The position numbers and the translations under genes were made by a program. The notes below the pieces were generated by a model. The model had not been told where the DNA came from. It did not search any database and was given only the letters and a program-made list of their open reading frames with translations. Positions 8,362 to 61,449 of a DNA stretch of 64,000 nucleotides are shown piece after piece; within the stretch, counting starts at the first letter, position 1, and each line of letters opens with the position of its first letter. The DNA is taken from NCBI GenBank assembly GCA_015064395.1, contig SVSH01000010.1, positions 4,890-68,889 on the forward strand, written 5' to 3'. Origin of the DNA: Oscillospiraceae bacterium (GTDB lineage Bacteria > Bacillota > Clostridia > Oscillospirales > CAG-272).

Positions 8362-9861
8362 ATGGCATTCACGGTTTGCGTACATCACAACACGGGTGAA
8401 TATCGTGGGCAGTACCCGGCAGGGACACGCCTGTCCGACATTCTATCGGATGCCGGTCTTGTCGCGCCTCACCCCTGCGGCGGACACGGCAAATGCGGCA
8501 AATGCGCTGTTCGCGTGGTGGGAGAGGTGTCTCCCATGACTGAAACGGAGCGGGACGCCCTGCGTGGCGCGGGATACCCTACCGACGGGTCCTACCGCCT
8601 GTCCTGTCTTGCCGAGGCTATCGGCAATCTTACCCTTTATTATAACACAATCGACGCTTCGTTGCAAGGGGTTGTGCAAGGTTTTTGCAAGGAATTTTCC
8701 ATCGACCCGCCTCGCCTTGGCAATGGCATTGGCATGGCGGTCGACATCGGAACGACCACCGTTGCGGCTTATCTGTATGATCTTACAAATGGAAAGCGAC
8801 TGGCCGAGACCTGCGTGGAAAACCCACAGAAGGTGCACGGCGCTGACGTCATCTCGCGCGTGGGCCACGCTCTGACGGGCGGCGGCGAGCAACTGAAACA
8901 GGAAATCGAGGAATGCCTTGGTGATCTGGAGCGCGAGCTGAGCCAACGTGCGGGCGTGCAAGCCCCGGGGACGGTCGTGGCCGTCGGCAATACTGCCATG
9001 CTGCATCTGCTGACCGGGACGGACGTCTCTCCTCTAGCCGCCGCACCGTTTATTCTCAAACGGTCGTTTGGCGAGTGGGAAAACGATCGCTATTATCCGC
9101 CTTGCATCTCGGCCTACGTCGGCGCGGACATGACGGCGGCTATTCTGTCTTCGGGTATGTGTGAGCATCCCAACAAGACGTCTCTGCTCATCGACGTGGG
9201 CACCAACGGGGAAATGGCTCTGTTCCATCGGGGCGAGCTCACCACTTGTTCTACGGCCGCAGGACCGGCCTTTGAGGGCGCGGGCATTTCGTGTGGCTCT
9301 ATGGCTGTGCCGGGGGCAGTGAGCGAGGTGTGGGCCGAGGATGGACATATTGCCTATCGCACGATCGAGGATCGCCCGCCTGTGGGCCTTTGCGGCACGG
9401 GACTCATTGACGCGGCGGCGGTGCTGCTTGAGCTGGGCCTGATGGAGGACAGCGGCTTTATGGAAACGGATGCTGTGCTGGGCGAGAGCGGACTTGTCCT
9501 GACGCGAGCCGATATTCGCCAATTACAACTGGCCAAGGCGGCTATTCGCGCCGGTATCGACACCCTTCTTGCGGACCGTGGTTTGACCTATACGGACGTG
9601 GACGTTTTATACTTGGCAGGCGGCTTTGGCTCGTACTTGCACCCTGGGAGCTGTGCGGCTATTGGTATGATCCGACGGGAGCTGATCGACAAGATCGAAG
9701 TGCTCGGCAATGCGGCAGGACAGGGAGCATCTATGATGTTGCTCTCTCGGGAGGAGATGTCCCGAGCGGAGGAGATTGCCCGTAGTGCTACGACGCTGGA
9801 GCTGTCAACGAGTGGGGTGTTTATGGAAAAATATGTGGATGGGATGTTGTTTGGCATTTAG
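8362..9861 (+). CDS. reductive activase of corrinoid proteins (RACo-like; 2Fe-2S ferredoxin + ASKHA/DUF4445 ATPase)
   Basis: 499 aa. N-terminal plant-type ferredoxin cysteines (HPCGGHGKCGKCAV ... SCLA), followed by actin-fold phosphate motifs (AVDIGTTT, LIDVGTNGE). The last ~19 nt, including the TAG stop, resemble a repeat-element terminus. Confidence 0.85.
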   Translation: MAFTVCVHHNTGEYRGQYPAGTRLSDILSDAGLVAPHPCGGHGKCGKCAVRVVGEVSPMTETERDALRGAGYPTDGSYRLSCLAEAIGNLTLYYNTIDASLQGVVQGFCKEFSIDPPRLGNGIGMAVDIGTTTVAAYLYDLTNGKRLAETCVENPQKVHGADVISRVGHALTGGGEQLKQEIEECLGDLERELSQRAGVQAPGTVVAVGNTAMLHLLTGTDVSPLAAAPFILKRSFGEWENDRYYPPCISAYVGADMTAAILSSGMCEHPNKTSLLIDVGTNGEMALFHRGELTTCSTAAGPAFEGAGISCGSMAVPGAVSEVWAEDGHIAYRTIEDRPPVGLCGTGLIDAAAVLLELGLMEDSGFMETDAVLGESGLVLTRADIRQLQLAKAAIRAGIDTLLADRGLTYTDVDVLYLAGGFGSYLHPGSCAAIGMIRRELIDKIEVLGNAAGQGASMMLLSREEMSRAEEIARSATTLELSTSGVFMEKYVDGMLFGI

Positions 9862-10324
9862 CTTTCTCTCTTTTGTCCGCCGCACAACGCGCGGCGGGAG
9901 GTTTATGCACCTTCTTGGCGTTCCCCAAGAAGGTGCCAAGAAGGGAACCAAGGGGCCTAATGCCCCTTGGGACCCCACTACCCGACGGCTTTTTGAGAGC
10001 CGTCGGGACTTTTGCCTTTGCAAGCCTCCTCCATCTTGGGCGCATGAGCGCACGCCCAAGATGAGTTTGTCTTGGCAAAAGTTTTTGCCTTCTTCGCCTG
10101 CCGCTCGTGTTGGTAAGATTTGAAGCACAGCACTAAAAGCGCTTATATGATCTCTCTTGTTCCTCTTTGCAGAGCGGCAAAGCCAGGGGGTTCCCAGGGG
10201 GAACGCCTGGGTTCCTTTTCTTTCGCCATTTCTTTGTGGAACGACAAAGAAATGGCATCCATGCCTGTACAGCGCACGCGCGTAGCAGTGTGCGCGTCAA
10301 AAGGAGAAGTTGTTTGGAATTTAG
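9862..10324 (+). repeat. hairpin-dense modular repeat element, locus R1 unit 1 (463 bp, short-middle 'alpha' form)
   Basis: By eye, identical to unit 2 except for one base (t at 9874 vs c at 10337). Ends in AAAAGGAGAAGTTGTTTGGAATTTAG. Confidence 0.95.
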
Positions 10325-10787
10325 CTTTCTCTCTTTCGTCCGCCGCACAACGCGCGGCGGGAGGTTTATGCACCTTCTTGGCGTTCCCCAAGAAGGTGCC
10401 AAGAAGGGAACCAAGGGGCCTAATGCCCCTTGGGACCCCACTACCCGACGGCTTTTTGAGAGCCGTCGGGACTTTTGCCTTTGCAAGCCTCCTCCATCTT
10501 GGGCGCATGAGCGCACGCCCAAGATGAGTTTGTCTTGGCAAAAGTTTTTGCCTTCTTCGCCTGCCGCTCGTGTTGGTAAGATTTGAAGCACAGCACTAAA
10601 AGCGCTTATATGATCTCTCTTGTTCCTCTTTGCAGAGCGGCAAAGCCAGGGGGTTCCCAGGGGGAACGCCTGGGTTCCTTTTCTTTCGCCATTTCTTTGT
10701 GGAACGACAAAGAAATGGCATCCATGCCTGTACAGCGCACGCGCGTAGCAGTGTGCGCGTCAAAAGGAGAAGTTGTTTGGAATTTAG
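10325..10787 (+). repeat. R1 unit 2 (463 bp tandem copy)
   Basis: The 463-nt period is confirmed by identical track ORFs starting at 10120 and 10583. Confidence 0.95.
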
Positions 10788-11325
10788 CTTTCTCTCTTTC
10801 GTCCGCCGCACAACGCGCGGCGGGAGGTTTATGCACCTTCTTGGCATTCCCCAAGAAGGTGCCAAGAAGGGAACCAAGGGGCCTAATGCCCCTTGGCACC
10901 CCGCAGTGCGCCACGGCAAAATGAATTTTGCCTGATTGTGGCGCAAAAGTACACATCTTCAACGCTTGCGTTTGCAAGTGAAAGAAACTTGCAAACACGG
11001 AAGTGGCACGCAAGATGCAAGAGCAAAAGCTTGTGCCGCCGTTCTACGCACCTTGCGATAGCATAAATCTTACGCAAAAACGGAAAGCAAAAGCCCTTGC
11101 TTTCTCCGCCTGCCGCTCGTGTTGGCAAAAATTGAGGCACAGCACAGGGAGTGTTCATGTGACCTCTTGTCTTTCTCTTTGTAGAGCGGCAAAGGAGGGA
11201 GGACCCGGAGGGAACGTCCGGGTTCACTTTCTTGGTTACTTCTTTGTTGAAAGACAAAGAAGTAACAGAACGCATACGCCGCCGCGTTGTGGCGGCGACA
11301 AACAAAAGGAGAAGCTGCTAAATCT
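10788..11325 (+). repeat. R1 unit 3 (long-middle 'beta' form)
   Basis: The first ~108 nt match units 1 and 2. It then switches to the longer middle shared with R3, R10, R2, R4 and R8. Ends in AAAAGGAGAAGCTGCTAAATCT. Confidence 0.85.
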
Positions 11326-11360
11326 CTTGCTTCCCCCACAAACCCAAAGCAAAAAACATA

Positions 11361-11400
11361 GCACCTATACCCCTTGCGAAGTATAGGTGCCTTTTTATTT
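11361..11400. terminator. bidirectional terminator downstream of ftsH
   Basis: GCACCTATAC-CCCTTGCGAA-GTATAGGTGC, flanked by an A-run and a T-run. Confidence 0.75.
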
Positions 11401-11406
11401 CAATCA

Positions 11407-13410
11407 TCAAAAGAAATTCGAACCATAACTGCCGATCGGTGTATCGTCAGCCGGGGGATCCGAAGGCCCCGAGTCGTCGGAACTACCTGTCGCATCGGGC
11501 TTGCTTTCGTCCTCGGCACGCTTTTCGTTTTCCTCGCGGCTCTTGCGCTTCTTCTCCTCAAGCATTGCCTCCAGCTCTTCGATGGTGGGATCACCATCCA
11601 TCGCGGCGGCAAACTGCTCGCCGTCCATGATCTCATTCTTCATGAGGAAGTCAGCGATGAACTTCATCTTGTTCATATGCTCGGACAGAATGGTGCGAGC
11701 CAGCTCGTGTGCCTCGGTGATCAGCTTGTGGATTTCCTCGTCAATCTTGGTTGCCGTCGTGCCGGCGTAGTCCTTGGTGCTGGACGAGAAGTCACGGCCC
11801 AGGAACACCTCGCCCTGGTTGCCGCCGAAGGCGCGAGGACCGAGCAAGTCGCTCATACCCAGACGGGTGACCATCTGACGGGCAATGTTGGTGGCACGCT
11901 CAATATCGTTGGAAGCACCGCCCGAAATATCGTCGAACATCAGCTCCTCCGCCGTGCGGCCACCCAACAGCATGGCGATCTCTTGCTTGAGCTCGTTGCG
12001 GTAAACGCTGTATTTATCCTCCACAGGGGGATTGAGGGTGTAGCCCAGTGCGTTGCCACTGGGAATGATGGAAATCTGCTGAACAGGGTCAAGCAGGGGC
12101 AGAACGTGGGCGATAATGGCGTGACCCGCCTCGTGGATGGCCGTCTTGTACAGCTCTTCCTTTTTGCGCACGCGGGACTTCTTCTGAGGACCGGCGATGA
12201 CTTTGATATAAGCATCTTCGATATCATCCATGCCGATCAGAGCCTTGTTGCGTCTGGCGGCCAGAAGGGCAGCTTCGTTGAGCAGGTTGGCCAGATCCGC
12301 ACCGGTAAAGCCGGCGGTTGTGCGAGCCACACGGGCCAGATCCACACTCTCTTCCAGGGGCTTGTTGCGGGAGTGAACCTTCAGGATCTCCTCGCGTCCC
12401 TTGATGTCGGGATAGTTGACCGTGATCTGACGGTCGAAACGACCGGGACGCAGCAGTGCGGGGTCAAGAATGTCGGGGCGGTTGGTCGCTGCGATGACGA
12501 TGATACCGTCGTGCGCACCAAAGCCGTCCATTTCAACCAGCAACTGGTTGAGCGTCTGCTCGCGCTCGTCGTGCCCGCCGCCCAGTCCCGCACCGCGGTG
12601 GCGACCGACAGCATCGATCTCATCGATAAAGATGATGGAAGCAGGCGCTTTGCGCGCGGTCTCAAACAGGTCGCGTACACGAGAGGCGCCGACACCGACG
12701 TACATTTCTACGAAATCCGAACCGGAAATAGAGAAGAAGGGAACACCGGCCTCACCGGCAACGGCCTTGGCCAGCAGCGTCTTACCCGTACCGGGAGGGC
12801 CCACGAGCAGAACGCCGTGGGGAATCTTGGCGCCGAGCTTGCTGTACTTGGCGGGATTCTTGAGGAATTCCACCACCTCCTGCAGCTCTTCCTTTTCCTC
12901 GTCTGCACCGGCAACGTCGCGGAACAGGACGCGGTTCTGATCGTTGGGATTGGGCGTTTTGACACGTGCCTTGCCAAAGCTGTTCATCTTACCGCCGCCC
13001 TTGCTGCCAACGCGGGCCATATAGACCCACAGCGCGATAAACAGGACGATGACGATAAGATAGGGCAACAGGCTCAGCCACCAAGGATAGGTGACAGGGG
13101 GCTCGTATTCGCCCTTGAGCGTACCCGCGGCCATTTGCTCGGTGATGATCTCACCCAGGTCGGCGTGGAACAAGGAGAGATTGGCCACCTCGTAGATGAC
13201 CTCCTTGCCGTCGATCAGCTTCATGGTCAGGATATAGTCCGGCGACAGATTGAACTCTGCTACCTGCCCGCTGGTGAAGTACTGCACCACCTTGTCGTAG
13301 GTGGGATTCTCCGCCGCATTGCTGTTTTGGAACATCTGGGCAAGGAAGAAGACGATCAATCCGATCAGCAGGACATAGAATAAGATAACTTTTATGTCTT
13401 TGCGTTTCAT
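11407..13410 (-). CDS. ftsH: ATP-dependent zinc metalloprotease FtsH
   Basis: 667 aa. Walker A GPPGTGKT, second region of homology, and the HEAGH zinc site. Confidence 0.97.
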
Positions 13411-17308: not shown

Positions 17309-17343
17309 GGTGGTACTCCTTGTATAGATAGAGATATTTTTTC

Positions 17344-17815
17344 GGTAGCCGGATGGGCGCGCCACAATGCGGCGCGCTGTGCGGTTGTGTTACTTCTTTG
17401 ACGCACGTCAAAGAAGTAACCAAGAAAACGTGCCAAGACGTTCCCTCTTGGATCTCCCTTGGCATTGCCGCTCTGCAAAGCGAAAGAGGAGAAAGATATA
17501 AAAATTTGTAATGCATCGCTTGCCATTTTGACAACACGAGCGGCAGATGTAGAAAGCAAGAGTTTTTGCTCTGCAATGTGTGCGAGTTTCTTTAACTCGC
17601 GCACACGAGCGTTGAAGTCGCATATCTTCGCGTCGTGTTGCGCGGAGCGAGAGCGCAGCGCCCACAAAGGCGCGCTGCGGGGTTCCAAGGGGCATTAGGC
17701 CCCTTGGTCCGTTTTCTTGGTTCGTTCTTTGTCGGATGACAAAGAATGAACAATTATGCTTTCACCGAGCGCGCGCAGCAGGGCGAGGCTGTAGGAGAAG
17801 ATGTGAAAAATTTAG
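17344..17815 (-). repeat. modular repeat element, locus R2
   Basis: Contains the GTAG-CCGGATGG + GCGCGCCACAATGCGGCGCGC hairpin and two TTCTTTG/CAAAGAA hairpins (17389-17420, 17720-17751). Also carries an inverted GGGAACG-loop hairpin (17433-17451) and an inverted long-range GCCGCTC/GAGCGGC module. Terminus ...GGAGAAGATGTGAAAAATTTAG. Confidence 0.9.
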
Positions 17816-17820
17816 AATAC

Positions 17821-22377: not shown

Positions 22378-22977
22378 CTAAATTTCAAACAACTACTTCT
22401 TTTGACGCGCACACAGCTGCGCGCGTGCGCTGTGCTGGCATGGATGCCATTTCTTTGTCGTTCCACAAAGAAATGGCGAAAGAAAGGGAACCAAAGGCTG
22501 CCGCCTTTGGAAACTGCTCCCGTGCCGCTCTACAAACAGGAAGACAAGAGGTCATATAAACGCTTTTGATGCTGTGCCTCAAATTTAGATAACACGAGCG
22601 GCAGGCGGGGAAAGCAAGAACTTTTGCTTTCCGTTTTGCTGGAAATTTGCACTATCAAAGGGTGCGTAGAACGGTGGCGCAAAAGTTTTTGCTGTTGCAT
22701 TTTGCGTGCTACTCCCATGTTTGCAAGTTTCTTTAACTTGCAAACACAAGCGCTGAAACTGCTTACTTTTGCGTCGTGTTGCGCGGAGCGAAAGCGTAGC
22801 GCTCACAAAGACGCACTGCAGGGTTCCAAGGGACATTAGGTCCCTTGGCGCCCTTCTTCCGCCACTTCTTGGGGCGCGCCAAGAAGTGGCATCAAAAACC
22901 GGCACAGTTCAGCGCGCGCAGCTCGACGAAGTCGAGGTGGGCTGTGTGCGCTTGCCAAGAAAAAGTAGTTAAAAAAT
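22378..22977 (-). repeat. modular repeat element, locus R3 (full-length beta form, TIR-bounded)
   Basis: Starts CTAAATTTCAAACAACTACTTCTTTTGACGCGCACAC and ends ...GTGTGCGCTTGCCAAGAAAAAGTAGTTAAAAAAT. Module-for-module it is the reverse complement of R10. Confidence 0.9.
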
Positions 22978-32814: not shown

Positions 32815-33891
32815 ATGGCAAAATTCAGAAAAATCGGTATATTAACCTCGGGTGGCGATGCTCCCGGTATGAACGCGGCGGTTCGTGCCGTGGCACGTGA
32901 GGCCATGCACGAGGGCGTGCAGGTCGTTGGCATCCGCGAGGGCTATCAGGGCCTGATCGAGGGCAACGTGTTTGATATGACGACGCACGACGTCTCCGGT
33001 ATCATCACCCACGGCGGCACCGTGCTGTACTCCAGCCGCAGCCCCATGTTTATGACGGACGAGGGCATGAAAATGGCCCTGGATACCTGCGAGAAGAACA
33101 ACATTGATGCCATCGTAGCGCTGGGCGGCGACGGTACCTTCCGCGGTGCCACCAAGCTGACCCACAACGGCATTCCCTCCATCGGCATTCCCTGTACCAT
33201 CGACAACGACATTACCGCCACCGAGCACACCATCGGCTTTGATACGGCCATGAATACGGTGCTGGGCATGGTAGACGCACTGCGTGAGACCTGCGAGTCG
33301 CACAAGAGATGTAACGTCATCGAAGTTATGGGCCGCGACTGCGGTCTGATCGCACTGCACACGGGTTTGACCACGGGCGCTTTGGCCATTGCCATTCCCG
33401 AGATGCCCTTTGACGAGGACTTTGCCATTGGCAAGCTGGCCTCTGCCCGCGCACAGGGCAAGAGAGGTCTGATCGCGCTGGCGAGCGAGGGCATGAAGCC
33501 GGTCGGTGATCACAAGTACAGCGAGTATTTTGCCGAGCAGATCGAAAAGCGTACCGGCATTGAGACTAAATTTGCCCGTTGCGGACACATTATCCGCGGC
33601 GGTGCGCCCACACTGCGCGACCGTTTGATCGCGACGGCTATGGGCTATGCGGCGGTTCAGGAGCTGCTGGCAGGCAAGAGCAATGAGGTCATGTGTATTG
33701 TGGACGGTAAGATCGCGCCGGTTGAGATCAACTATGCGCTGATCCTTGATCGTATGTACAAGGGCAGACTGCAGGATGGTGACCTGGATCAGTTCACGCA
33801 GGAGCAGCTGGCGTCCATGAAGGAGACCTGCCGCGTACGCCGGCGTGAGATTGAATATTTGTATCAGATGGCGAATAGTATCAGCTTCTGA
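32815..33891 (+). CDS. pfkA: ATP-dependent 6-phosphofructokinase
   Basis: 358 aa. Motifs GILTSGGDAPGMNAA, GGDGT and PCTIDND. Confidence 0.95.
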   Translation: MAKFRKIGILTSGGDAPGMNAAVRAVAREAMHEGVQVVGIREGYQGLIEGNVFDMTTHDVSGIITHGGTVLYSSRSPMFMTDEGMKMALDTCEKNNIDAIVALGGDGTFRGATKLTHNGIPSIGIPCTIDNDITATEHTIGFDTAMNTVLGMVDALRETCESHKRCNVIEVMGRDCGLIALHTGLTTGALAIAIPEMPFDEDFAIGKLASARAQGKRGLIALASEGMKPVGDHKYSEYFAEQIEKRTGIETKFARCGHIIRGGAPTLRDRLIATAMGYAAVQELLAGKSNEVMCIVDGKIAPVEINYALILDRMYKGRLQDGDLDQFTQEQLASMKETCRVRRREIEYLYQMANSISF

Positions 33892-33940: not shown

Positions 33941-33946
33941 GGAGAT

Positions 33947-34631
33947 TTTTGAATTTTTAACAACTGCTCCTACGGATGGGCGCGACACAACGCGTCGCGC
34001 TGTGCGTGGATGCCTATTCTTTGCCTTGTCGCAAAGAATAGGCGAAGAAAAGACACTTAAGGGCCTAATGCCCTTAAGAAACCCGCAAAAATTTTCTCTT
34101 TCGCTATCTTTTGGTGGTTACCAAAAGGCAATATTGCATCTGCAACTCTTGCGAAACAAAATCCAAAGATTTTGTTTCTATTGCAAGCAGGCGAGTACCC
34201 TCCGCTTCATCCCGTGCTGCGCTTCAAAACGAAAGAAGAGAAGAACAGCTATGTTGTTTATGCGCTATTCAAGGGTAGCTATCACGCGCGGCAGGCGTAA
34301 TAAGCGAAAATTTTTGGTGAAATGGGGCGCGGAAAGCAGGAGCAAAATTTTTTCAAAAGCGTCTTGCGTGCTACTTCCGTGAGGGCAAGTTTTTTTAACT
34401 TGCCCTCGCGAACGCTGAAGTTGCTCACTTTTGCGCCACGATCAGGCAAAATTCATTTTGCCGTGGCGCACGGCGGGGTTCTAAGGGGCTTGCCCCTTAG
34501 TCCGTTTTCTTGGTTCGTTCTTTGTCGGAGGGCAAAGAATGAACATCAAAAACTGCACAGCGAGCGCGCACAACTCGACGAAGTCGAGGTGGGCAGTGTG
34601 AGCGTCAAAAGAAGAAGTTGTTGGAATTTTA
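33947..34631 (-). repeat. modular repeat element, locus R4 (degenerate long form)
   Basis: Left end TTTTGAATTTTTAACAACTGCTCC. Contains TTCTTTG/CAAAGAA hairpins at 34012-34043 and 34513-34544, and CTTAAGGG/CCCTTAAG and CTAAGGGG/CCCCTTAG hairpins. Right end ...AAAAGAAGAAGTTGTTGGAATTTTAA overlaps the XRE stop codon. Confidence 0.85.
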
Positions 34632-34847
34632 ATTCAACTTCCTCGGCTCATTTGTAAATCCAGCAAGATAGTCCAATGATACGTTATAAAATTTAGCCAA
34701 AGCAATAGCAATGCAAAAAGGAACCTCCTGCTCGCCGCGTTCATAGCGAGCATAGGTCGTTGTATATAGGCCGAGGGCTTCGGCAATTTGACGTTGGCTG
34801 ATATCGTGATCTTCTCTTAAATCGTGTAATCTTAAATAATCAAACAT
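34629..34847 (-). CDS. XRE-family helix-turn-helix transcriptional regulator
   Basis: 72 aa from the internal Met MFDYLRLHDLREDHDISQRQIAEALG. The upstream extension in the track ORF is repeat-derived. Confidence 0.8.
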   Translation of the reverse strand: MFDYLRLHDLREDHDISQRQIAEALGLYTTTYARYERGEQEVPFCIAIALAKFYNVSLDYLAGFTNEPRKLN

Positions 34848-34940
34848 ATATTTACTCCGAAAACAAAGATTGTGCTGACTCCATTCTACCATAAAGAAAG
34901 AAAAAGTGTTGAAAATACATACAAAAATATGTATAAAAAA

Positions 34941-35055
34941 TTCTCCTACGGCCTCGCCCAGCTTCGCGCGCTCGGTAAATGTGTTTTTTGTCACTTCTTG
35001 GCGCGCCCCAAGAAGTGACCAAGAAGCGCGCCCAGGCGTTCCCCCTGGGAACCCC
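34941..35055. repeat. repeat-element fragment, locus R5 (a left-end portion)
   Basis: TTCTCCTACGGCCTCGCCCAGCTTCGCGCGCTCGG, then CACTTCTTGG/CCAAGAAGTG, then CCCAGG-CGTTCCC-CCTGGG. It matches the R10 left end minus its first ~10 nt. Confidence 0.8.
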
Positions 35056-35174
35056 CTGCTGCTGCTTTGTTCAAAGTTTGTTTACAAACACAAAATTGTG
35101 TTATTTTCAAGCAGAAAAATCTATTTTATGATATCATTGGAATACCGCAATAAAAACAAAAAAGGAGAACAATA

Positions 35175-38930: not shown

Positions 38931-39232
38931 CTAAATTTGTTAGAGCTTGTGTAGCCTAAGCGGACTCGAACCGATCAGCCTCTCGCGCGAAAAATTTTCG
39001 CGTCTTTACGCGTGACTCGGCTTGAAAAGTCCGCACTTTCCGGCGCCTCGTCCCGCAAAAATCCATCAAAAATTTTTCAGGCGAGAGGTGCCTTGCAGTT
39101 TTAGGCGAGCAAATATTTGTCATAGGCAAGGAAAAAAGGCGAAGCAATATGCGGATATTGCAAGACTTTTTGACACAGCATATGCGGATATTTGCCGCCT
39201 AAAACCTCATTGGTTCGAGCCCACTTAGGCTA
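38931..39232. repeat. palindromic element with tRNA T-arm/acceptor-like inverted termini (locus R6a)
   Basis: TAGCCTAAGCGGACTCGAACCGAT (38952-38975) pairs with ATTGGTTCGAGCCCACTTAGGCTA (39209-39232), an imperfect 24-nt inverted repeat. Internal long-range complements are 38976-38986 with 39081-39090, and 39099-39116 with 39188-39204. It is preceded by CTAAATTTGTTAGAGC (38931-38946). Confidence 0.8.
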
Positions 39233-39619
39233 GCCGGACGCTCACACTGTGCTTTGCACGCGCTCGCGAACAGTTCTTTTGTTCATTCTTTCTTGTCCGA
39301 GAAAGAACGAACCAAGAAAGCGGACTAAGGGGTCTAATACCCCTTAGAACCCCGCAAAACCTTTTGCTTTCTTCGTCTGCCGCTCGTGTTGGGCTATATG
39401 GCGAGAGATGCGCAAGGAGTATATATGTCTTTCTCCTCCGTCCACTTTGCAGAGCGGCACGGGAAGGGAGTTCCAAGAGGGAACGTCTTGGCGCGCTTTC
39501 TTGGTTCGTTCTTTGCCGCGTGGCAAAGAATGAACATTCCTGCTGTCCGCGAGCGCGTGCAGCTCGACGAAGTCGAGGTGGGCTGTGCGAGCCTGTAGAA
39601 AAAGGTGCAGAAAATTTAG
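39233..39619 (+). repeat. modular repeat element, locus R6b
   Basis: Hairpins at 39281-39312 and 39504-39535 (TTCTTT/AAAGAA type), CTAAGGGG/CCCCTTAG, the long-range GCCGCTC...GAGCGGC module, and CCAAGA-GGGAACG-TCTTGG (39473-39491). The terminus ...GAAAATTTAG lies 2 nt before the rsgA stop. Confidence 0.9.
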
Positions 39620-40678: not shown

Positions 40679-41093
40679 AAAGTTTTTAGAGCTTATGTAG
40701 CCGGAAGGGCGCGCCACAACGCGGCGCGCTTTGTGGGTGTGTTACTTCTTTCTCATTCAAGAAAGAAGTAACCAAGAAAGTGAACCCGGACGTTCCCTCC
40801 GGGGCCTCCCTTTTCGTGCCACGCTACAAAGCGGTACAAGAGAGATCAAATATGCTTTCCTTATGCAGATCTCCAAGGGAGACAACACGCGTGGCAGGCG
40901 GAAAAAGCAAGAAATTTTTGCAATCTCCACAGGGGCGTTCTTCGAACGCCCGCGGGCGAACGCAGTTCGCCCCTACAGGTAAATCTAACATCGTGGAGCG
41001 AGTGGGAAGGGGCCCACGAGCTTGCGATAGTACCTATGGAACAGCGCACTCACTTTCCCATACAGGGCAAGGAGAAGTTGTCCCGGCTACACT
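40679..41093 (-). repeat. modular repeat element, locus R7
   Basis: Contains GTAGCCGGAAGG + GCGCGCCACAACGCGGCGCGC, GTTACTTCTTTC/GAAAGAAGTAAC (40741-40772) and CCCGGA-CGTTCCC-TCCGGG (40785-40803). The inverted long-range stem has the compensated arms GCCACGC (40818-40824) and GCGTGGC (40889-40895). Right end AAGGAGAAGTTGTCCCGGCTACAC. Confidence 0.85.
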
Positions 41094-41177
41094 CCTGTTT
41101 CCTCCTTGAAGATTTTTGAAGGGTCGTAGGGAAACTTTTTTCAAAAAGTTTCCCTACACCGTCCCCTCTCGCGTCCC

Positions 41178-45146: not shown

Positions 45147-45166
45147 AGGAGGCTCCTTTCGGAAGA

Positions 45167-45661
45167 TTAAAGTTGTTAGAGCAAGCGTCGCCGGACGCTC
45201 ATACTGCGCGACAAGTCGCGCGCTGAGCGGATAGCTTGTGTGCCATTTCTTTGTCGCTGAACAAAGAAATGGCGAAAGAAAGGGAACCAAGACGTTCCCT
45301 CTTGGAACTCCCTTTTCGTGCCGCTCTGCAAAGAGGGCTGGGGAGAAAAACATAAAAGGTTTAAGTGCCATCTCTCGCCATTATGCCAACACGAGCGGCA
45401 GGCACACAAAGCAAAAGGTTTTGCCTTGAAGTGAGCGTGGCTTTCTTTAAGCCGCGCTCGCAAAATTTGAATTCGCTTACCTCCGCGCCACGATCAGAAA
45501 AGCTTTCGCTTTTCGTGGCGCGCTACGGGTTTCCAAAGGGTATTAGACCCTTTGGTGCCTTTTCTTCGCCTATTCTTTGCGGCAAGGCAAAGAATAGGCA
45601 CTTGCCAACCGCGAGCGCGCGCAGCTGGGCGAGCCTGTAGAAGAAGTTGTTAAACCCTTAG
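45167..45661 (-). repeat. modular repeat element, locus R8
   Basis: Contains hairpins 45242-45273 and 45568-45599, CCAAGA-CGTTCCC-TCTTGG (45287-45305), the inverted long-range GCCGCTC/GAGCGGC module and CCAAAGGG/CCCTTTGG. The terminus GAAGAAGTTGTTAAACCCTTAG overlaps the fmt stop codon with its last bases. Confidence 0.9.
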
Positions 45662-46605
45662 CTCAACAAATCCCCCACATTGATCTTTCTTCCTCGAATA
45701 AAATCCCCCGCATCCATACGCCCTTTGCCCTCAGGCAAAACACGCAAAATATCAAGAGTTGTACCATCACCGCACGCAACAGTGATGACACCGCCCTCAA
45801 GCGAGATCACCCTGCCGACGGTAGCATCAACAGGACAAGAAACCTCCGATACACGCGAAGCGAGAACCTTCAACAGCTTGCCGTCAGGCGTGTGAGTAAA
45901 AGCCAGGGGAATGGGAGAGAGCCCGCGGATCTGATCGTGCAAGCATTTAGCAGAACGGGCAAAATCCAGCACACAGTCCTCTTTTTCTATTTTGGCCGCG
46001 TAGGTGGCAAGTGATGCATCCTGTTTTTGGGCGATGAGCGTGCCCTCCTTCAAAGCGGCGATGGTGCGAAGCAGCGTCTGTGCTCCCACCGCACCCAGAC
46101 GGTCGTGCATATCCTCAAAATTATCGTTTTCGCCGATCTCGACTTCATCACGGAGCAGCATATCGCCCGTGTCAAGTCCGACGTCCATGTACATGGTCGT
46201 AATGCCCGTGGTCTTGCAACCGTCAATGATGGCGCGCTGCATGGGCGCCGCGCCGCGATAGGCGGGCAGGAGAGATCCGTGGACGTTGATGCAGCCGTAT
46301 TTCGGATAGTCCAATACGTTCTTGGGCAGGATCTTGCCAAAGGCAACAACGACGACCAACTCGGGATCAAGCTCACTCAAAAGCGCGGCAAATTCCTCGC
46401 CCTTGAGCGTCGCGGGCTGATAGACGGGGATGCTTTGCTCGAGCGCATACACCTTGACAGGCGGCGGCGCGAGGGTGTAGCCTCGGCCGCGCGGCTTGTC
46501 GGGCTGGGTCACGACGCCAATGACGTCCTCCCCCGACTCGACCAGCGCCTTGAGGGAAAACAGGGCAAAATCAGGCGTGCCCATGAACAGAATTCTCATA
46601 TTCAA
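45658..46605 (-). CDS. fmt: methionyl-tRNA formyltransferase
   Basis: 315 aa. Motifs MGTPDFA and HGSLLPAYRGAAP. Confidence 0.95.
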   Translation of the reverse strand: MNMRILFMGTPDFALFSLKALVESGEDVIGVVTQPDKPRGRGYTLAPPPVKVYALEQSIPVYQPATLKGEEFAALLSELDPELVVVVAFGKILPKNVLDYPKYGCINVHGSLLPAYRGAAPMQRAIIDGCKTTGITTMYMDVGLDTGDMLLRDEVEIGENDNFEDMHDRLGAVGAQTLLRTIAALKEGTLIAQKQDASLATYAAKIEKEDCVLDFARSAKCLHDQIRGLSPIPLAFTHTPDGKLLKVLASRVSEVSCPVDATVGRVISLEGGVITVACGDGTTLDILRVLPEGKGRMDAGDFIRGRKINVGDLLS

Positions 46606-50935: not shown

Positions 50936-51823
50936 TTACTCCAGATTCTGGATCTGCTCGCGGATCTTCTCCAGCTCGTTTTTGGCATCCACAATGCGGT
51001 GGGCGATCTCGGCGTCGGCGCACTTGGAGCCGATGGTGTTGACCTCGCGGTTCATCTCCTGAATGAGGAAGTCCAGCTTGCGGCCGACGGCATCGTTTGC
51101 GTTCATCAGATCCTCAAACAGAGCGAAGTGGGAGCGAAGGCGAACCAGCTCCTCATCCACCGCGATCTTGTCGGCGTGCAGGGCACATTCGGTCAGAATG
51201 CGGTTTTCATCTGCCGTGACGCGGTTGTCTGCCAGAATGGTGCGCAATCTCTCCTCCAGCTTTTTGCGATAGCCGCTGACGTCCTCTGCACTTCGTTCCT
51301 CAACACCGTCGGTCAGGCGGCGCAGATTTTGCAGCTTGGTCAGCAGATCGTCGCGCAGTCTCGCCCCTTCGCGCTCGCGGGCGGCGATAAAGGCGTCTGT
51401 GGCCTCGCAAAGGACCGGCAACAGGCGCTCCCAGCTCTCATCAAGGTCGACCTCAACCTGCTCCTGGGCAAAAATGGCCGGATTGGCGGCGATGCGCATG
51501 ACGCTGATGTCATCGGTCAAGCCGTACTCGTCACGCAGATGGTACAGCGCATCGAGATAGGCGCGCACGGCAGTGTCGTTGACCGTCATGCCGCGGGGGG
51601 TCTGATCCTTGCTTTCCAGAGACACGGTGATGTCTACCTTGCCGCGGCTGATGCCTCGACTCTGCAGATACGGGCGGATGCGCTCCTCCAGCCCCGAGAA
51701 TACGCGGGGCAATCTCGGCGAACAATCCAGGTAACGGTTGTTGACCGAGCGCATTTCCACAACGATGGTATTCAGTTCATCCGTGCGGGTGGCACGAGAA
51801 AAAGCGGTCATGCTGCGAATCAT
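50936..51823 (-). CDS. yicC: YicC family (YloC-like) stress-induced protein
   Basis: 295 aa from [12 protein letters not shown]-terminal DUF1732 motif [12 protein letters not shown]. Confidence 0.85.
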
Positions 51824-52003
51824 GTAAGACACTCCGTCCTCTCCTTGCTCCTTTAGGAGCAATACATAATTTATTTTACCCCATTTTTGCGAAAATGTCA
51901 ACGGTTCGGTTGCATTTTTTCATATTTATAGCGGCCTTTTTGGGATGGCGATCCAAATCAATAAAAAAATTGTAAATTTTTTCGGGAAAATGTGCTCGGG
52001 GTA

Positions 52004-52032
52004 TTGAAAAATCAAAAAAAATGTTATATAAT
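52004..52032 (+). promoter_or_regulatory. sigma-A-type promoter for efp
   Basis: TTGAAA (52004-52009), 17-nt spacer, TATAAT (52027-52032), in an AT-rich intergenic region. Confidence 0.6.
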
Positions 52033-52080
52033 GATTTGCAAATACTATTCACAAAGAGTTTAACTAACTGGAGGTTTCAA

Positions 52081-52641
52081 ATGGTAGTAGCTGGTGATTT
52101 TAAGAATGGCGTTACGTTTGACATGGGCGACGGTGTCGTTTGGCAGGTCGTTGAGTTTCAGCACGTAAAGCCCGGTAAGGGTGCCGCATTCGTCCGTACC
52201 AAGATGAAGAACGTCATGACGGGCGGTATCGTTGAGCGTACCTTCTCGCCGACTGACAAGTTTGAGAACGCTTATATCGAGCGTCGCGAGATGCAGTACT
52301 CCTACGACGACGGTGACCTGTACCACTTCATGGACACCGAGACTTGGGAGGAGACTCTCATTGCACACGACAAGGTTGACGACAACTTCAAGTTCGTCAA
52401 GGAAGAAATGATGGTTAAGATCATTTCCTACAAGGGCAACGTCTTTGGCGTTGAGCCCCCCACATTCGTTGAGCTGGCTGTTGCTAAGACCGATCCCGGC
52501 TTCGCAGGCAACACCGCAACCAACACCCTCAAGCCCGCAACGCTGGAGACGGGCGCTGAGATCAAGGTTCCCCTGTTCATCAACGAGGGCGACGTGCTCA
52601 AGATTGATACCAGAACGGGCGAATATCTGTCCAGAGCATAA
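52081..52641 (+). CDS. efp: elongation factor P
   Basis: 186 aa from [10 protein letters not shown]. The [15 protein letters not shown] loop is present. Confidence 0.97.
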
Positions 52642-52732
52642 AACAAATCAACAAAAACACAGGAGGGAGAAGGAATACCGCCGCGCGGTGCGCCATTCTC
52701 CCTTTTTGTTCAAACGAAAGGAGAACATAACA

Positions 52733-53215
52733 ATGGAACTGAAGGAAAAAGCTGCATATCTGAAGGGCCTGGCTGACGGTCTGGACTATGACAAGGAGAC
52801 CAAGGAGGGCAAGCTGATTGCCGCTCTGATCGATCTGACGCAGGAGCTGTGCTCGGCGGTCGAGATGTTGGATACCGATATGGACGAGGTCGCCTGTGAA
52901 CTCGAGGAGCTGCGTGAGTATATCGAGGAGATCGACGACGATCTGAACGACGTTGAGGAGTTTTTGGACGAAGAGGTAGAGCTTGACGACTGGGACGACG
53001 AAGAGGACGACGAGGATGAGGACTGGTGCGACGGCGAATGCGAGGGTTGCAGCGGTTGCGACGATTATTTTGAGATCGTGTGTCCTTCTTGCGGCGAGAC
53101 CATCTGCTTTGATGAGTCGGTCGATCCGGAGGATCTGACCTGTCCTGCATGCCAGGAGAAGTTTGCGTGCATCGTAGAAGAGGATGACATGCAGGCGCTG
53201 GCAGAGGAAGAATAA
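52733..53215 (+). CDS. highly acidic protein with a C-terminal CxxC...CxxC zinc ribbon (resembles the CD1247 N-terminal-domain family)
   Basis: 160 aa from MELKEKAAYLKGLADG (AAAGGAGAA RBS). Long D/E tract, then CPSCGETICF...CPACQEKF. The family name is from memory. Confidence 0.55.
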   Translation: MELKEKAAYLKGLADGLDYDKETKEGKLIAALIDLTQELCSAVEMLDTDMDEVACELEELREYIEEIDDDLNDVEEFLDEEVELDDWDDEEDDEDEDWCDGECEGCSGCDDYFEIVCPSCGETICFDESVDPEDLTCPACQEKFACIVEEDDMQALAEEE

Positions 53216-53224
53216 GTTTGGACT

Positions 53225-53262
53225 AAAAAAGCGGACTTTCTTTGGAAAGTCCGCTTTTTTGT
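53225..53262 (+). terminator. rho-independent terminator
   Basis: AAAAAAGCGGACTTTC-TTTG-GAAAGTCCGCTTTTTT. Confidence 0.85.
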
Positions 53263-53296
53263 TGGGCGGGATTTGAAGCAATTGCTTGAAATTTAG

Positions 53297-53757
53297 TTTT
53301 CTCTCCTTTGTCCGCCGCACAACGCGCGGCGGGAGGTTTATGCTACTTCTTGGCGTTCCCCAAGAAGTAGCCAAGAAGGGAACCAAGGGGACACCCCTTG
53401 GGACCCCGCTGCCCGACGGCTTTCGAGAGCCGCCGGGGCTTTTGCTTTCGCAAGCCTCCTCCATCTTGGGCGCATGAGCGCACGCCCAAGATGGGTGCGG
53501 TTTGGCAAAAACCCTTGCTTTCTTTGCCTGTCGCTCGTGCTGGCAAAATTTGAGGCACAGCACAGGGAGCGTTTATGTGATCTCTCGTCTTCCTCTTTGA
53601 AGAGCGGCACGGGAGCAGTTTCCAAAGGCGGCAGCCTTTGGCGCGTTTTCTTGGTTCGTTCTTTGCCGCGTGGCAAAGAATGAACAACAAAGACAGTACA
53701 GCGAACGCGTGCGAAGCACAGTGTGAGCGTCAAAAGGAGAAGTTGCTTGAAATTCAG
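53297..53757 (+). repeat. modular repeat element, locus R9 (alpha form, 461 bp) flanked by direct repeats
   Basis: Collinear with the R1 units. The left flank ATTGCTTGAAATTTAG (53281-53296) matches the element terminus GTTGCTTGAAATTCAG (53742-53757). Confidence 0.92.
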
Positions 53758-53819
53758 CTAAACAAAACAAACCTCCCATCCCACACATGCCGCGTGGGAT
53801 GGGAGGTTGTCTATCTTTT

Positions 53820-56495: not shown

Positions 56496-56677
56496 AAGGA
56501 ACTCCTCCTTAAAATAGTTTTGCTATGTGCGCCTTGAGCGCCAAGCGATGGGAAGCACGAGATCTGGTACTACGTGCTACACGTACCATTATATCCCCTT
56601 TCTCCCCGTTTGTCAAGGGTCAGTTAGACGGAGACTGTTGTCGAGGCGAGTCAGCCCCTTATCATGGAGAAATGCGA

Positions 56678-56710
56678 CAAAAAACGAGCCGGGACATCTT
56701 GTCCCGGCCC
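56678..56710 (-). terminator. rho-independent terminator of the SPFH gene
   Basis: GAGCCGGGAC-ATCTT-GTCCCGGCCC preceded by AAAAAA on the plus strand, which is a T-run on the minus strand. Confidence 0.75.
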
Positions 56711-56728
56711 ATCCTTTGAGCGATCAGG

Positions 56729-57751
56729 TTATTCGCCGGCTTGCTCGTCGGTCTCCTCGGTGGTTTCCTCGGGAGCTTGCTCGGTGGCATCTTCTTGGTT
56801 CTTCAGACCATAGATCAAAGCCAGAATGCCCTGCTCATCCATGCCTGCGATAAACTCGGGCATCTTGCCGTCCCACTGCTTGATGGCGTAGTATTCCAGC
56901 AGTACCTCGGTCAGCGACTCGGACAGTGCCTTGTTGACGGCGGCATCCTTCTGACCGGCGTACTCGGCGGCGTCAGCCTGGATCTGCAGAACCTCCTTTT
57001 CCGCCTCTGCCTGGATCTTGACGACCTCGGCATTCGCCTGGGCCGTGATGACCTGACGGTCAGCGGCGGCCTGCTCCTCCATGGTCTTTTGCTCCTGCTC
57101 GGTCTCGGCCTTCAGCTTTTCCTGCTGGGCGACCTGCTTCGCCTCGACCGCCTGGGTGAAGACGTCCGAGAAATCCATATCCTCGATCGCCGTGTTGACG
57201 ACGTCGATATTGTAGACGCTCAACTCCTTCAAAAGGATGTCGGTGATCTGGGAGGAGAGCCTGTCGCGGTTCTCGATCAGCGTTTCGGCCGTGTACTTGG
57301 CGATCACGCTGCGAACAGCCACCTCAATGCGGGGCTGCATCACGACGTCGTAATACTCCTCGCCGATGGTCTTGTAGATGTTCTGTGCGTCGCTCTTCTG
57401 GATCTGATAGTTGATGGAATAGCGAACGGAGACCTCCTGGATGTCGCTGGAGAAGCAGCTCAGGTCAACGACGGACTTCTGGGTGCGGTTGTCCATCACG
57501 ACGACCTTTTGAACGGGGAACTTGAAATGCAGACCGGCCTCCAGCGTGGTGTCCTCCACGCGGCCAAAGGTGGTCAGAATGCCCGTGTGTCCGGTGGGAA
57601 CGACGGCAAACATGCCGCCGATCAACCACAGGCAGCCAAGCAGCGAGAGGAGCTGACGGGGACGCAGCTTCCACTTTTTCTCCGCAACCGAAATGCCGAG
57701 AACGATGAAAAGAACCAGCGCGGTGACCAGGGATAAAATGATAAATGCCAT
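56729..57751 (-). CDS. SPFH/band-7 (prohibitin-like) membrane protein
   Basis: 340 aa. N-terminal TM, then the SPFH domain, then a coiled-coil AQQEKLKAETEQEQ region and an acidic tail. Confidence 0.85.
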   Translation of the reverse strand: MAFIILSLVTALVLFIVLGISVAEKKWKLRPRQLLSLLGCLWLIGGMFAVVPTGHTGILTTFGRVEDTTLEAGLHFKFPVQKVVVMDNRTQKSVVDLSCFSSDIQEVSVRYSINYQIQKSDAQNIYKTIGEEYYDVVMQPRIEVAVRSVIAKYTAETLIENRDRLSSQITDILLKELSVYNIDVVNTAIEDMDFSDVFTQAVEAKQVAQQEKLKAETEQEQKTMEEQAAADRQVITAQANAEVVKIQAEAEKEVLQIQADAAEYAGQKDAAVNKALSESLTEVLLEYYAIKQWDGKMPEFIAGMDEQGILALIYGLKNQEDATEQAPEETTEETDEQAGE

Positions 57752-57780
57752 AGGTAACTCCTTCTGCCCGTGGGGCGTAT

Positions 57781-57828
57781 AAAAATATCACGCGACCGTG
57801 TATCATAATTATAACACGCGGTCACGTG
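57781..57828 (-). terminator. candidate terminator of trkH, which may overlap the SPFH promoter
   Basis: Imperfect inverted repeat TCACGCGACCGTGT (57788-57801) with ACACGCGGTCACGTGA (57813-57828). An A/T-rich run on the minus-strand 3' side. The loop contains TATAAT-like sequence. Confidence 0.5.
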
Positions 57829-57860
57829 ATTGTCAATAGGTTGTCAAAAGATTTTGAAAA

Positions 57861-60762: not shown

Positions 60763-60866
60763 ATGGGCTCCTTTGTTTGAAATGATGGGTGATGTGGGTA
60801 TATGATAATACTTTTTTGGAAAAATTGCAATAGGTTTTGGGATATTTTGTTTTAGGGAGAATGAGG

Positions 60867-61432
60867 TTTTAACAACTTCTCCTCCCCACGCGCACCCAGC
60901 TTCGCGCGTGCGCTGTGCGAATGATGCCACTTCTTGGCACGCCCCAAGAAGTGGCGGAAGAAGGGCGCCAAAGGGCCTGGAGCCCTTTGAAAACCCGCAG
61001 TGCGTCTTTGTGGGCGCTACGCTCTCGCTCCGCGCAACACGACGCAAAAATCTACAGTTTCAGCGCTTGCGTTTGCAAGTTAAAAAAACTTGCAAACACG
61101 GAAGGTGCACGCAAGATGCGATAGTAAAAAGCTCTTGCTGTCGTTCAACGCGGCTTATGACAGCATAGCTTTTTCGCAAAACGGAAAGCAAAGCCTCTTG
61201 CTTCCTCCACATGCCGCTCGTGGTGACAAGAGTTGAGGCACAGCATCAAAAGGGTTTATGTAATCTCTCGTCTTCCTCTTTGTAGAGCGGCAATGCCGGG
61301 GGTCCCCAGGGGGAACGCCTGGGCGCGTTTCTTGGCTACTTCTTGCCGCGCGGCAAGAAGTAGCATCAAAAAACCGGTACACCGAGCGCGCGGAGCTGGG
61401 CGAGGCAAAAGAAGAAGTTGTTTGAAATTTAG
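60867..61432 (+). repeat. modular repeat element, locus R10 (full-length beta form, TIR-bounded, 566 bp)
   Basis: Left end TTTTAACAACTTCTCCTCCCCACGCGCACCCAGCTTCGCGCG. The right end reverse-complemented reads ATTTCAAACAACTTCTTCTTTTGCCTCGCCCAGCTCCGCGCG. All modules are present. Confidence 0.92.
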
Positions 61433-61449
61433 CCATATCCAAATACTCA

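Follow-up and report, generated by a model that had tools for sequence, protein, structure and literature searches.

The hairpins at positions 10100-10256 of a 64,000-nucleotide stretch of an Oscillospiraceae bacterium genome (contig SVSH01000010.1; the whole stretch is referred to as the window) were shown to be modules of an undescribed family of mosaic intergenic repeats, which are 0.3–0.7 kb long and reside in uncultured Oscillospiraceae-like gut Clostridia. Furthermore, the comparison of copies showed that each arm of these elements, taken as a single strand, represents a predicted hairpin–H-type pseudoknot–hairpin unit. An earlier note on this DNA had listed several of the hairpins and had proposed that their structure is preserved by selection, and not left over from neutral transposon decay, for a function at the RNA or single-stranded-DNA level; the loop pairing that defines the pseudoknot was absent from that note.

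The window consists of chromosomal firmicute DNA with a G+C content of 51–62% in 2-kb windows, and its genes include spoIIE, ftsH, infB, ygiQ, gdpP-rplI-dnaB, rsgA, fmt, and other housekeeping genes. Its nearest relatives in the genome collection are uncultured Oscillospiraceae/Eubacteriales metagenome-assembled genomes (MAGs), and SVRN01 (isolate SIG644) is syntenic with window positions 50936-58253 at 76–86% identity. Approximately 12 copies or fragments of the repeat occupy ~8.7% of the bases in the window (Table 1). About 90 more copies were collected by scanning one genome per species with a central-module pattern, and copies were present in at least seven species-level MAGs (SVRN01, JAZQUX, JAZLCA, JAZLDE, JAZSBJ, JAFVZV, and CAJGDZ). 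Window and scan together provided a data set of 158 arms and 90 central modules. Unrelated high-G+C genomes were also matched by chance, these matches being devoid of any other element part. The window gave no match in Rfam at the gathering score, and the Rfam search of region 9800-11400 at the E-value threshold returned chance-level microRNA matches only.

Architecture of the elements and compensated pairing

Two inverted arms of ~130 nt flank a variable interior, with a central module on one side of the interior. From the terminus inward, the arm comprises a terminal motif, a GC hairpin, a TTCTT/AAGAA hairpin of 30 or 32 nt (H1), an AAGAA purine spacer of 7–9 nt, a segment of 4–5 nt (S), and a second hairpin with a conserved loop (H2) that directly abuts S. 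The termini read CTAAATTT...ACAACTTCT, the terminal motif being CTAAATTTnnnACAACTTCTyCT..., and a second terminus type is CTAAAnTTGTTAGAGCTTGTGTAGCCGGAC. The GC hairpin combines a conserved ACAACGC loop with a stem that co-varies among copies (GCGCGCC, GCGCGAC, GCGCGGC, and CGCCGCC). H2 occurs as a hairpin with the CGTTCCC/GGGAACG loop, as CCAAAGGCTGCCGCCTTTGG, as the CTAAT-loop hairpin of module (d), or as rarer modules. Between the arms, further hairpin modules are found, and the central module of ~80 nt, closed by TGCCGCTC/GAGCGGCA, adjoins one arm. The elements are regarded as mosaics because one H1 version occurs joined to different H2 modules. Their ends form a 10-bp palindrome, TTTAGCTAAA (variants TTCAGCTAAA and TTTAGCTGAA), which was found at window position 53752 and in the comparison loci L006, L007, L034, L043, L048, L070, L073, and L074, and both head-to-head and head-to-tail junctions of elements at TTTAGCTAAA are exact to the base.

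All 15 copies of the TTCTTTG hairpin that had been listed before were recovered at their positions, with the single correction that the last one ends at 61364 and not at 61363. The scan of the window for TTCTT...AAGAA hairpins found 21, compared to these 15, the copies missed being TTCTTGG versions starting at 9907, 10370, 10833, 22861, 34990, 53342, and 60926. The exact pattern TTCTTTG-N8-CAAAGAA occurs 12 times in the window, with 0.00 occurrences expected. On reading, all of the stem versions given as perfectly complementary proved to be so, and the version with a G-T pair (GTTCG.../...TGAAC) carries this pair on the strand reading toward the nearer terminus, as had been stated, in 5/5 window copies and in 35/35 copies from seven genomes.

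H1 and the pseudoknot were evaluated together for 84 distinct arms. To equalise their length, the additional T.A pair of the 32-nt hairpins was removed and the spacer was cut back to its last 6 nt. This length-normalised alignment replaced a plain MAFFT alignment, which mis-registers the 30-nt and 32-nt hairpin classes. In total, 92.7% of the cells were paired, versus 71.4 ± 0.7% after shuffling, and the covariation score was 0.528, versus 0.148 for shuffled alignments (0/500) and between 0.04 and 0.12 for slid partners (at most 0.117); the shuffle controls disregard relatedness among the copies, whereas the slid controls do not. The five pairs of the TTCTT/AAGAA core and the terminal G-C pair are invariant. 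Changes of both partners were seen in each of the four variable outer pairs and in two inner pairs, corresponding to double changes in 6 of the 12 pairs of this first helix. For the outer five base pairs, 14 Watson–Crick versions were found, most of them common to several species, and 11 of the 14 belong to one network in which neighbours lie one base pair apart and mismatched intermediates occupy the edges. For example, the mismatched GCCAC/ATGGC stands between GCCAC and GCCAT, GTCAC/GTAAC stands between GTCAC and GTTAC, and GTTCA/CGAAC, which is the G-T version mentioned above, stands between two rare Watson–Crick forms. This network of single-pair steps indicates that compensatory change gave rise to the outer-stem versions themselves.

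The H1 loop and segment S are complementary. S ends on the base with which H2 begins, the second helix of the pseudoknot thus being contiguous with H2. At least 14 complementary loop/partner versions were found (TTCC/GGAA, CTGA/TCAG, TGCC/GGCA, TGTC/GACA, CGCG/CGCG, CGCC/GGCG, CGTC/GACG, CGTG/CACG, CACG/CGTG, TCCG/CGGA, TTCA/TGAA, TTCG/CGAA, TTTC/GAAA, and CTCG/CGAG). The pairing holds in ~95% of the arms, with double changes in four of the five pairs of this helix, and the longest complementary run between loop and S averages 4.50 nt, compared to 3.22 ± 0.07 nt in 1000 permutations. The few exceptions look like recombinants, for instance at window position 45242, where the loop cgctga lies beside GGAAC. 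After the hypothesis had been set, it was replicated on 18 distinct new arms from metagenome contigs, of which 17 showed 4/4 core pairs (mean paired 3.94 versus 1.89 ± 0.26). The spacer is on average 7.15 nt long beside 30-nt hairpins and 8.32 nt beside 32-nt hairpins, a difference of 1.2 nt for one additional base pair of stem, which fits a linker that spans the stem, but could also be explained by shared ancestry. Arms fold far better than their shuffles on both strands (z between −2.7 and −5.6). A pairing of the spacer with the terminal purine motif, taken from minimum-free-energy folds, was rejected, since it is not conserved and GTAGCC-type termini have no such tract.

Compensation also extends to the second hairpins and to the central module. 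The GGGAACG-loop stems CCCAGG, CCCGGA, and CCAAGA, as well as the four module-(d) stems, read as previously described, and further versions were encountered elsewhere, including CTCGGA, CCAAGG, CTTGGA, and CCAAGGGAC. Altogether, at least six stems occur under the invariant CGTTCCC/GGGAACG loop and at least eight in module (d). The covariation score of the GGGAACG-loop hairpin was 0.578, versus 0.237 after shuffling (0/500), with double changes in 6/6 pairs. Both the long-range stem GCCGCTC/GAGCGGC (10100-10106/10172-10178) and its doubly compensated counterpart GCCACGC/GCGTGGC (40818-40824/40889-40895) were confirmed. This stem has one more outer pair per arm and is therefore 8 bp long, TGCCGCTC/GAGCGGCA, the doubly compensated copy spanning 40817-40897; by pattern, eight copies are present in the window, whereas none is expected. 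In the alignment of the long-range stem, 99.5% of the cells are paired, with only the pairs 25-96 (U-A 63, G-C 13, broken 1) and 23-98 (G-C 74, A-U 1, G-U 1, A-C 1) being informative, because part of the set was retrieved with a pattern that fixes the other six. RNAalifold found no other conserved pairing in the 68-nt interior of the central module, in which conserved motifs are present.

Fixed sites across species and exchange of modules

Syntenic comparisons between species, with flank identities of 72–94%, provided ~20 comparable sites, of which ~8 had not been selected by the pattern. All of them were occupied in both genomes, and no empty site or presence–absence polymorphism was found among them. 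The orthologous elements are patchworks, in which some blocks are near-identical and others are replaced by another version of the same module, each replaced block being internally compensated. At the E45 site, for example, GCCTA.../cttgcc/GGCA in the window corresponds to GCCCC.../tgcgcc/GGCG in L041.

Over 20 orthologous pairs, the identity of aligned blocks averaged 81.6%, compared to 84.5% for the mostly coding flanks, and the assumption that elements are always more conserved than their flanks was rejected; only the unswapped blocks exceed the flanks. The third codon positions of the flanks are 66–83% identical, and unswapped blocks surpassed them in L052/L077 (97.4% over 346 nt versus 76.5%), L034/L073 (96.2% versus 80.9%), and the window/L055 (77.3% versus 65.8%), suggesting a constraint on their sequence. 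Among themselves, the window copies align over 57% of their length at 77% identity. From these results, we infer that the family is old, fixed in place, and reshuffled by the exchange of module versions.

The earlier note had named, as an outcome that would count against its proposal, that the variants turn out to be a few clonal subfamilies. Partly, this is what was found: the versions are discrete and old, are common to several species, and were moved as blocks. However, they are too many and too closely connected to be a few subfamilies. Since variants are exchanged as blocks, copy counts overstate the number of independent events.

Transcripts or single-stranded DNA as the folded form

The proposal that structure is preserved, in place of neutral transposon decay, is supported by the many compensated versions, by persistence at orthologous sites, and by the conservation of unswapped blocks, and the proposed function at the RNA or single-stranded-DNA level stands as a constraint on the single-stranded form. 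Our tentative explanation, to which we assign a probability of roughly 0.45, is that a formerly mobile, now resident family has arms that fold in operon transcripts into hairpin–pseudoknot–hairpin units and serve as orientation-independent stability or processing signals. The family would have begun as a mobile element with terminal inverted repeats and would by now be old and fixed at its sites, its module versions being reshuffled by recombination between copies. The fold would be kept by selection on the single-stranded form, most probably the RNA of operon transcripts reading through the elements. Stable pseudoknotted hairpins between cistrons could act as barriers or processing signals and may thereby set the stability of the upstream and downstream mRNA segments, and the symmetric arms would make this effect independent of the orientation of the element.

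The position of the elements is consistent with such a role. Within strings of genes, they usually take up the entire space from a stop codon to the following ribosome-binding site, as in gdpP-E17-rplI-dnaB, rsgA-E39-thiN, and fmt-E45-peptidase. These gene strings are operons in other firmicutes. Gap filling inside operon-like gene strings makes read-through transcription likely. Among 48 elements with called neighbours, 38 lie between co-directional, 6 between convergent, and 4 between divergent genes, which, compared to a background of 209/25/30, represents no bias in site type. An intrinsic terminator as the main role was rejected, in spite of H2 and the pyrimidine spacer being flagged on the outward strand, because the variable 4–5-nt partner segment separates the stem from the U-rich tract. 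The central module was likewise rejected as coding, its frequent ATG being not conserved and no ribosome-binding site being present. A promoter-like TTGAGG-N17-TTATGT occurs in one central-module subtype only, and a consensus scan reported nothing there.

RNA is favoured over single-stranded DNA as the folded form, and several observations weigh against this choice. No strand-specific RNA signal was found in the orientation of the central module or of the G-T arms. The central module is sense to genes in 22 cases and antisense in 11, which is not significant, the sites being not independent. The arms bearing the G-T pair are not oriented with the flanking genes, with 14 facing gene ends and 9 facing gene starts, so that strand polarity follows the element and not the host mRNA; the caution that the strand consistency of this pair may simply reflect common descent was therefore right. 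Because G-U is tolerated on one strand only, the folded strand could be recognised by one type of mismatch being in excess. In H1, the A.C mismatch as read inward (G.T outward) accounts for nine events versus two of the other type, and in H2 for six versus four, which is a weak excess, and the intermediates of the long-range stem comprise one G.U and one A.C. Polarity set relative to the termini, the palindrome TTTAGCTAAA, and base-precise joins point to activity at the DNA level, and block swapping means that many of the compensations arrived by recombination and not in place. Moreover, the sequences used for comparison come mostly from short-read MAGs and were obtained with one central-module pattern.

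A particular form of the transcript fold is suggested by the invariance of the H1 core TTCTT/AAGAA and the AAGAA spacer, around which positions merely co-vary. On the strand toward the terminus, the order is H2 - S' - CTTTCTTTC - H1, the pyrimidine linker running parallel to the purine strand of H1, and on the opposite strand, the linker is A-rich. A homopurine/homopyrimidine stem core with a matching spacer may speculatively be taken to indicate base triples, i.e., a triple-helix pseudoknot, which would account for the invariance of the core; a steric concern is raised by the short turn at the stem base. Triplex pseudoknots offer the geometry of U.A-U and C+.G-C for the pyrimidine linker along the purine strand of the long helix, and minor-groove triplexes the one for the A-rich linker of the other strand. 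With the pseudoknots of telomerase RNA and of the SAM-II and preQ1-II riboswitches, the arms have in common two interleaved helices supported by covariation. The likeness concerns the architecture only, with no sequence or family relation, and a long helix of 12–13 bp is unusually long. It appears improbable, although conceivable, that the arm represents a new class of triple-helix pseudoknot, in which a homopurine/homopyrimidine helix of 12–13 bp is clamped by its own pyrimidine (or purine) linker and locked by a loop/partner helix stacking on the next hairpin, and which, domesticated from a mobile element, would be distributed over housekeeping operons in gut Oscillospiraceae, where it would signal RNA stability or processing irrespective of orientation and carry a recombination-exchanged 4-mer "address", the loop/partner 4-mer.

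The main rival explanation, albeit rather unlikely in our view, is that the folds work at the DNA level for the element's own benefit, its arms, as single strands or cruciforms, being the recognition structure of a trans-acting transposase or recombinase, with the loop/partner pairing being guide-like and TTTAGCTAAA being the site of exchange. Comparable systems are REP sequences with RAYT, the ends of IS200/IS605, and attC sites with IntI. DNA-level events are indicated by the inverted arms, which amount to long terminal inverted repeats whose polarity is set by reference to the termini, by the cassette-like swapping of whole modules, by the exact head-to-head and head-to-tail junctions, and by the tandem array. 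In addition, the orientation of elements is independent of host transcription, and the G-T version always lies on the strand with its 3' end at the terminus. However, no partner enzyme was detected in the window or the comparison loci, and no partner transposase was found between inverted termini located 0.9–4 kb apart in ~1 Mb of sequence; the genes between such distant termini were housekeeping or regulator genes, namely those for SHMT, HflX, a sigma factor, LexA, and MarR. Enzymes known to read hairpins act on one and the same strand at either end and not on symmetric inverted arms, and neither a Y1 gene (IS200/IS605) nor an IntI gene (integron attC) was found in the window or the loci. The 12 copies with both termini revealed no consistent direct repeat and thus no clear target duplication, which could be hidden by the palindrome TTTAGCTAAA. 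Plasmid and phage BLAST searches and a pattern scan of IMG/VR viral contigs gave no match to the elements. The lack of insertion polymorphism at the ~20 orthologous sites and conservation at fixed sites across species are unlike what a selfish burst predicts.

An explanation without any function, in which the palindromes are kept perfect by template switching in quasi-palindromes and by gene conversion between arms and between copies, and clonal subfamilies of a decaying mobile element make up the variants, is quite improbable. It accounts for discrete versions that are common to several species and moved as blocks, for both strands folding equally well, and for the missing gene-related strand signal. 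Nevertheless, a palindrome-correcting mutation bias seems unlikely, because the mismatched A.C/G.T version persists uncorrected in 35 copies from seven genomes, with both corrected forms being rare, and because the loop/partner pairing, ~22 nt away and interleaved with a stable hairpin, is an unlikely substrate for template switching. The invariance of the loops CGTTCCC and ACAACGC and of the TTCTT core, the conservation of unswapped blocks beyond third codon positions, and the absence of any decay to empty sites also disagree with this explanation.

Finally, arrays of duplex-DNA binding sites for a host protein (nucleoid-associated, a regulator, or a site-specific recombinase), with three AAGAA half-sites per arm arranged as an inverted pair and one direct copy in an FRT/lox-like manner, would agree with the invariant TTCTT/AAGAA core and AAGAA spacer and with a hairpin layout of 13-bp inverted arms around a 6-nt centre, but are very improbable, since they explain neither the co-variation, as opposed to constancy, of outer and inner stem positions nor a palindrome centre complementary to a segment 22 nt away, the stems co-varying with largely no conserved duplex sequence outside the 5-bp core.

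Known repeat systems, neighbouring features, and implications

Like bacterial interspersed mosaic elements (BIMEs) and their repetitive extragenic palindromic (REP) units, the elements are extragenic, occur in high copy number, are built from palindromic units of 20–40 nt in alternating orientation with conserved linkers, and lie between operon genes and at 3' ends. As in these mosaics, the same hairpin is joined to different neighbours, and orthologous elements differ by whole modules. In Escherichia coli, BIMEs affect mRNA stability (PMC3184786). The elements described here have no sequence similarity to them, and the foot of the hairpin is preceded by a variable ...GAT, ...TAT, or ...TGT, with no GTAG-type tetranucleotide of the REP kind. 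Furthermore, they are larger (0.3–0.7 kb), with inverted arms of ~130 nt, a polar central module, a pseudoknot, and a firmicute host, whereas the hosts of BIMEs and REPs are enterobacteria and pseudomonads.

The repeat bcr1 of the Bacillus cereus group is transcribed and undergoes compensatory changes that keep a multi-hairpin RNA fold (PMC3184786). As firmicute intergenic repeats, bcr1 and bcr2-18 resemble the present family, in which compensatory base changes were likewise found to keep the fold, while transcription is suggested by the position inside operons. However, bcr1 is ~155 bp long, is flanked by 5-bp direct repeats, and has a distribution that is not conserved between strains, indicating recent mobility, whereas the elements studied here are three to four times larger, mosaic, without a clear duplication, and retained at the same sites in different species. 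BOX elements of Streptococcus pneumoniae are modular as well (boxA-boxB(n)-boxC), with complementary ends, strong predicted folds, and positions beside genes. To our knowledge, they are restricted to streptococci, and no pseudoknot has been reported for them; their modules differ from those described here, with no sequence similarity. With miniature inverted-repeat transposable elements (MITEs) such as Correia/nemis and ERIC, the family has in common terminal inverted repeats, here the ~130-nt inverted arms, a small non-coding unit, many intergenic copies, and folding as RNA, but no consistent target-site duplication in the 12 copies with both termini, no insertion polymorphism at the ~20 orthologous sites, and no partner insertion sequence in the ~1 Mb of sequence were found. 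Compared to BIMEs/REPs, bcr1, and BOX, which are its nearest known counterparts, the family is larger, more modular, pseudoknotted, and positionally conserved.

Table 1. Copies of the repeat family in the window and parts of repeat unit 1 (strand as noted; a point marks features without strand assignment).
Feature	Position	Strand	Basis or remark
Terminus-like motif GATGTTGTTTGGCATTTAG just before unit 1	9843-9861	+	TAG serves as stop codon of RACo-like gene 8362-9861
Array of three head-to-tail units, 463-bp period	9862-11325		
Repeat unit 1 (holds the hairpins of the earlier note)	9862-10325	.	Repeat families D2-D4, sequence reading
Distal-arm GC hairpin CCGCCGC-ACAACGC-GCGGCGG	9877-9897	.	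Sequence reading
Distal-arm H1 GCACCTTCTTGG-CGTTCC-CCAAGAAGGTGC	9907-9936	.	Hairpin scan
Purine spacer CAAGAAG, then partner GGAAC (9944-9948, pairs with H1 loop)	9937-9948	.	
Distal module-(d) hairpin CCAAGGGGC-CTAAT-GCCCCTTGG	9948-9970	.	
Interior hairpin modules CCCGACGGC...GCCGTCGGG, CATCTTGGGCG...CGCCCAAGATG, and GGCAAAAGTTTTTGCC	9981-10090	.	
Central module with 8-bp long-range stem TGCCGCTC (10099-10106)/GAGCGGCA (10172-10179)	10099-10179	+	
Proximal-arm H2, GGGAACG-loop hairpin CCCAGG-GGGAACG-CCTGGG	10193-10211	+	
Proximal partner GTTCC, pairs with H1 loop GGAAC (10238-10242)	10211-10215	+	
Proximal pyrimidine spacer TTTTCTTTC	10216-10224	+	
Proximal-arm H1 GCCATTTCTTTGT-GGAACG-ACAAAGAAATGGC	10225-10256	.	
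GC hairpin (10272-10295) and terminal motif TCAAAAGGAGAAGTTGTTTGGAATTTAG	10272-10325	.	Repeat family D5
Repeat unit 2	10326-10788	.	98–100% identical to unit 1 over aligned repeat families
Repeat unit 3	10789-11325	.	Left arm like units 1 and 2; interior and right arm of 60864-61433 type (families D1, D16)
E17, between gdpP and rplI	17341-17816	.	Central module on minus strand
E22	22378-22975	.	Left terminus CTAAATTTCAAACAAC intact; right end degenerate
E34, 3' of gene 32815-33891	33946-34633	.	Central module degenerate
Solitary arm: GC hairpin, H1, and H2	34931-35077	.	
E39, between rsgA and thiN	38931-39619	.	Left terminus split by an unrelated 277-bp MITE (38954-39230)
Half element: one arm and central module with doubly compensated GCCACGC/GCGTGGC	40680-40921	.	
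E45, between fmt and Zn-peptidase gene	45160-45662	.	Orthologous to element in L041
E53, between convergent genes	53278-53758	.	Orthologous to element in L055; terminus-like motif at left edge
E61, upstream of trkA	60864-61433	.	

Within the array at 9862-11325, the third unit is itself a mosaic, because its left arm and its interior with the right arm match different element types. The inverted ends of the MITE inside E39 are 19 bp long (GCCTAAGCGGACTCGAACC/GGTTCGAGCCCACTTAGGC), a TA duplication is present, and removal of the MITE restores the terminus CTTGTGTAGCCGGAC exactly. It is present as a single copy in the window, is not carried by the comparison loci, and displays a true MITE signature, unlike the element hosting it. 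A second kind of repeat, GGGCGAAC...GTTCGCCCCTAC together with the hairpin GGTCGTAGGGAAACTTTTTTCAAAAAGTTTCCCTAC, lies beside the half element (40921-41165; L034 ~760-1280), and in the SIG644 MAG, an element is likewise followed by related sequence.

At 9843-9861, 45658-45662, and 34629-34633, the TTTAG/CTAAA terminal motif contains or overlaps the stop codon of a flanking gene, the last codons of the RACo-like gene (...MLFGI and stop) being derived from terminus-like sequence. Where an element ends near a gene start, a C-rich stretch followed by CCGAAAGGA stands just before the ATG and recurs at unrelated loci. Long antisense open reading frames are common in the window and mislead length-based gene calling, as exemplified by the frame of 669 codons antisense to ftsH (11407-13410 on the minus strand versus 11374-13383 on the plus strand), which has nearly the length of the gene.

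The search pattern also matched a conserved site with 76-nt spacing in Muribaculaceae/Bacteroidales (L005, L018, L019, L022, L033, L049, and L056). These loci are mutually syntenic, at ~65–85% identity, and beyond the matched site have nothing in common with the repeat; the site is probably part of a conserved gene.

Intergenic repeats with a structure have been described from a few cultured bacteria, and their role is a long-standing open question. The family described here is very abundant in uncultured gut Clostridia (~9% of the window) and combines unusually rich covariation, a replicated pseudoknot, and fixed sites. The repeats also break metagenome assemblies, since the contigs L001 and L085 both end inside the tandem array (9843-11325), and they are mis-called as genes, which matters for MAG quality; in a public gene call, a 120-aa open reading frame without Pfam match was placed on the gdpP-rplI repeat (L085 1744-2106, corresponding to window ~17341-17816). 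As its specific pairings can be mutated and rescued, the family would lend itself well to the question of whether such repeats act as RNA.

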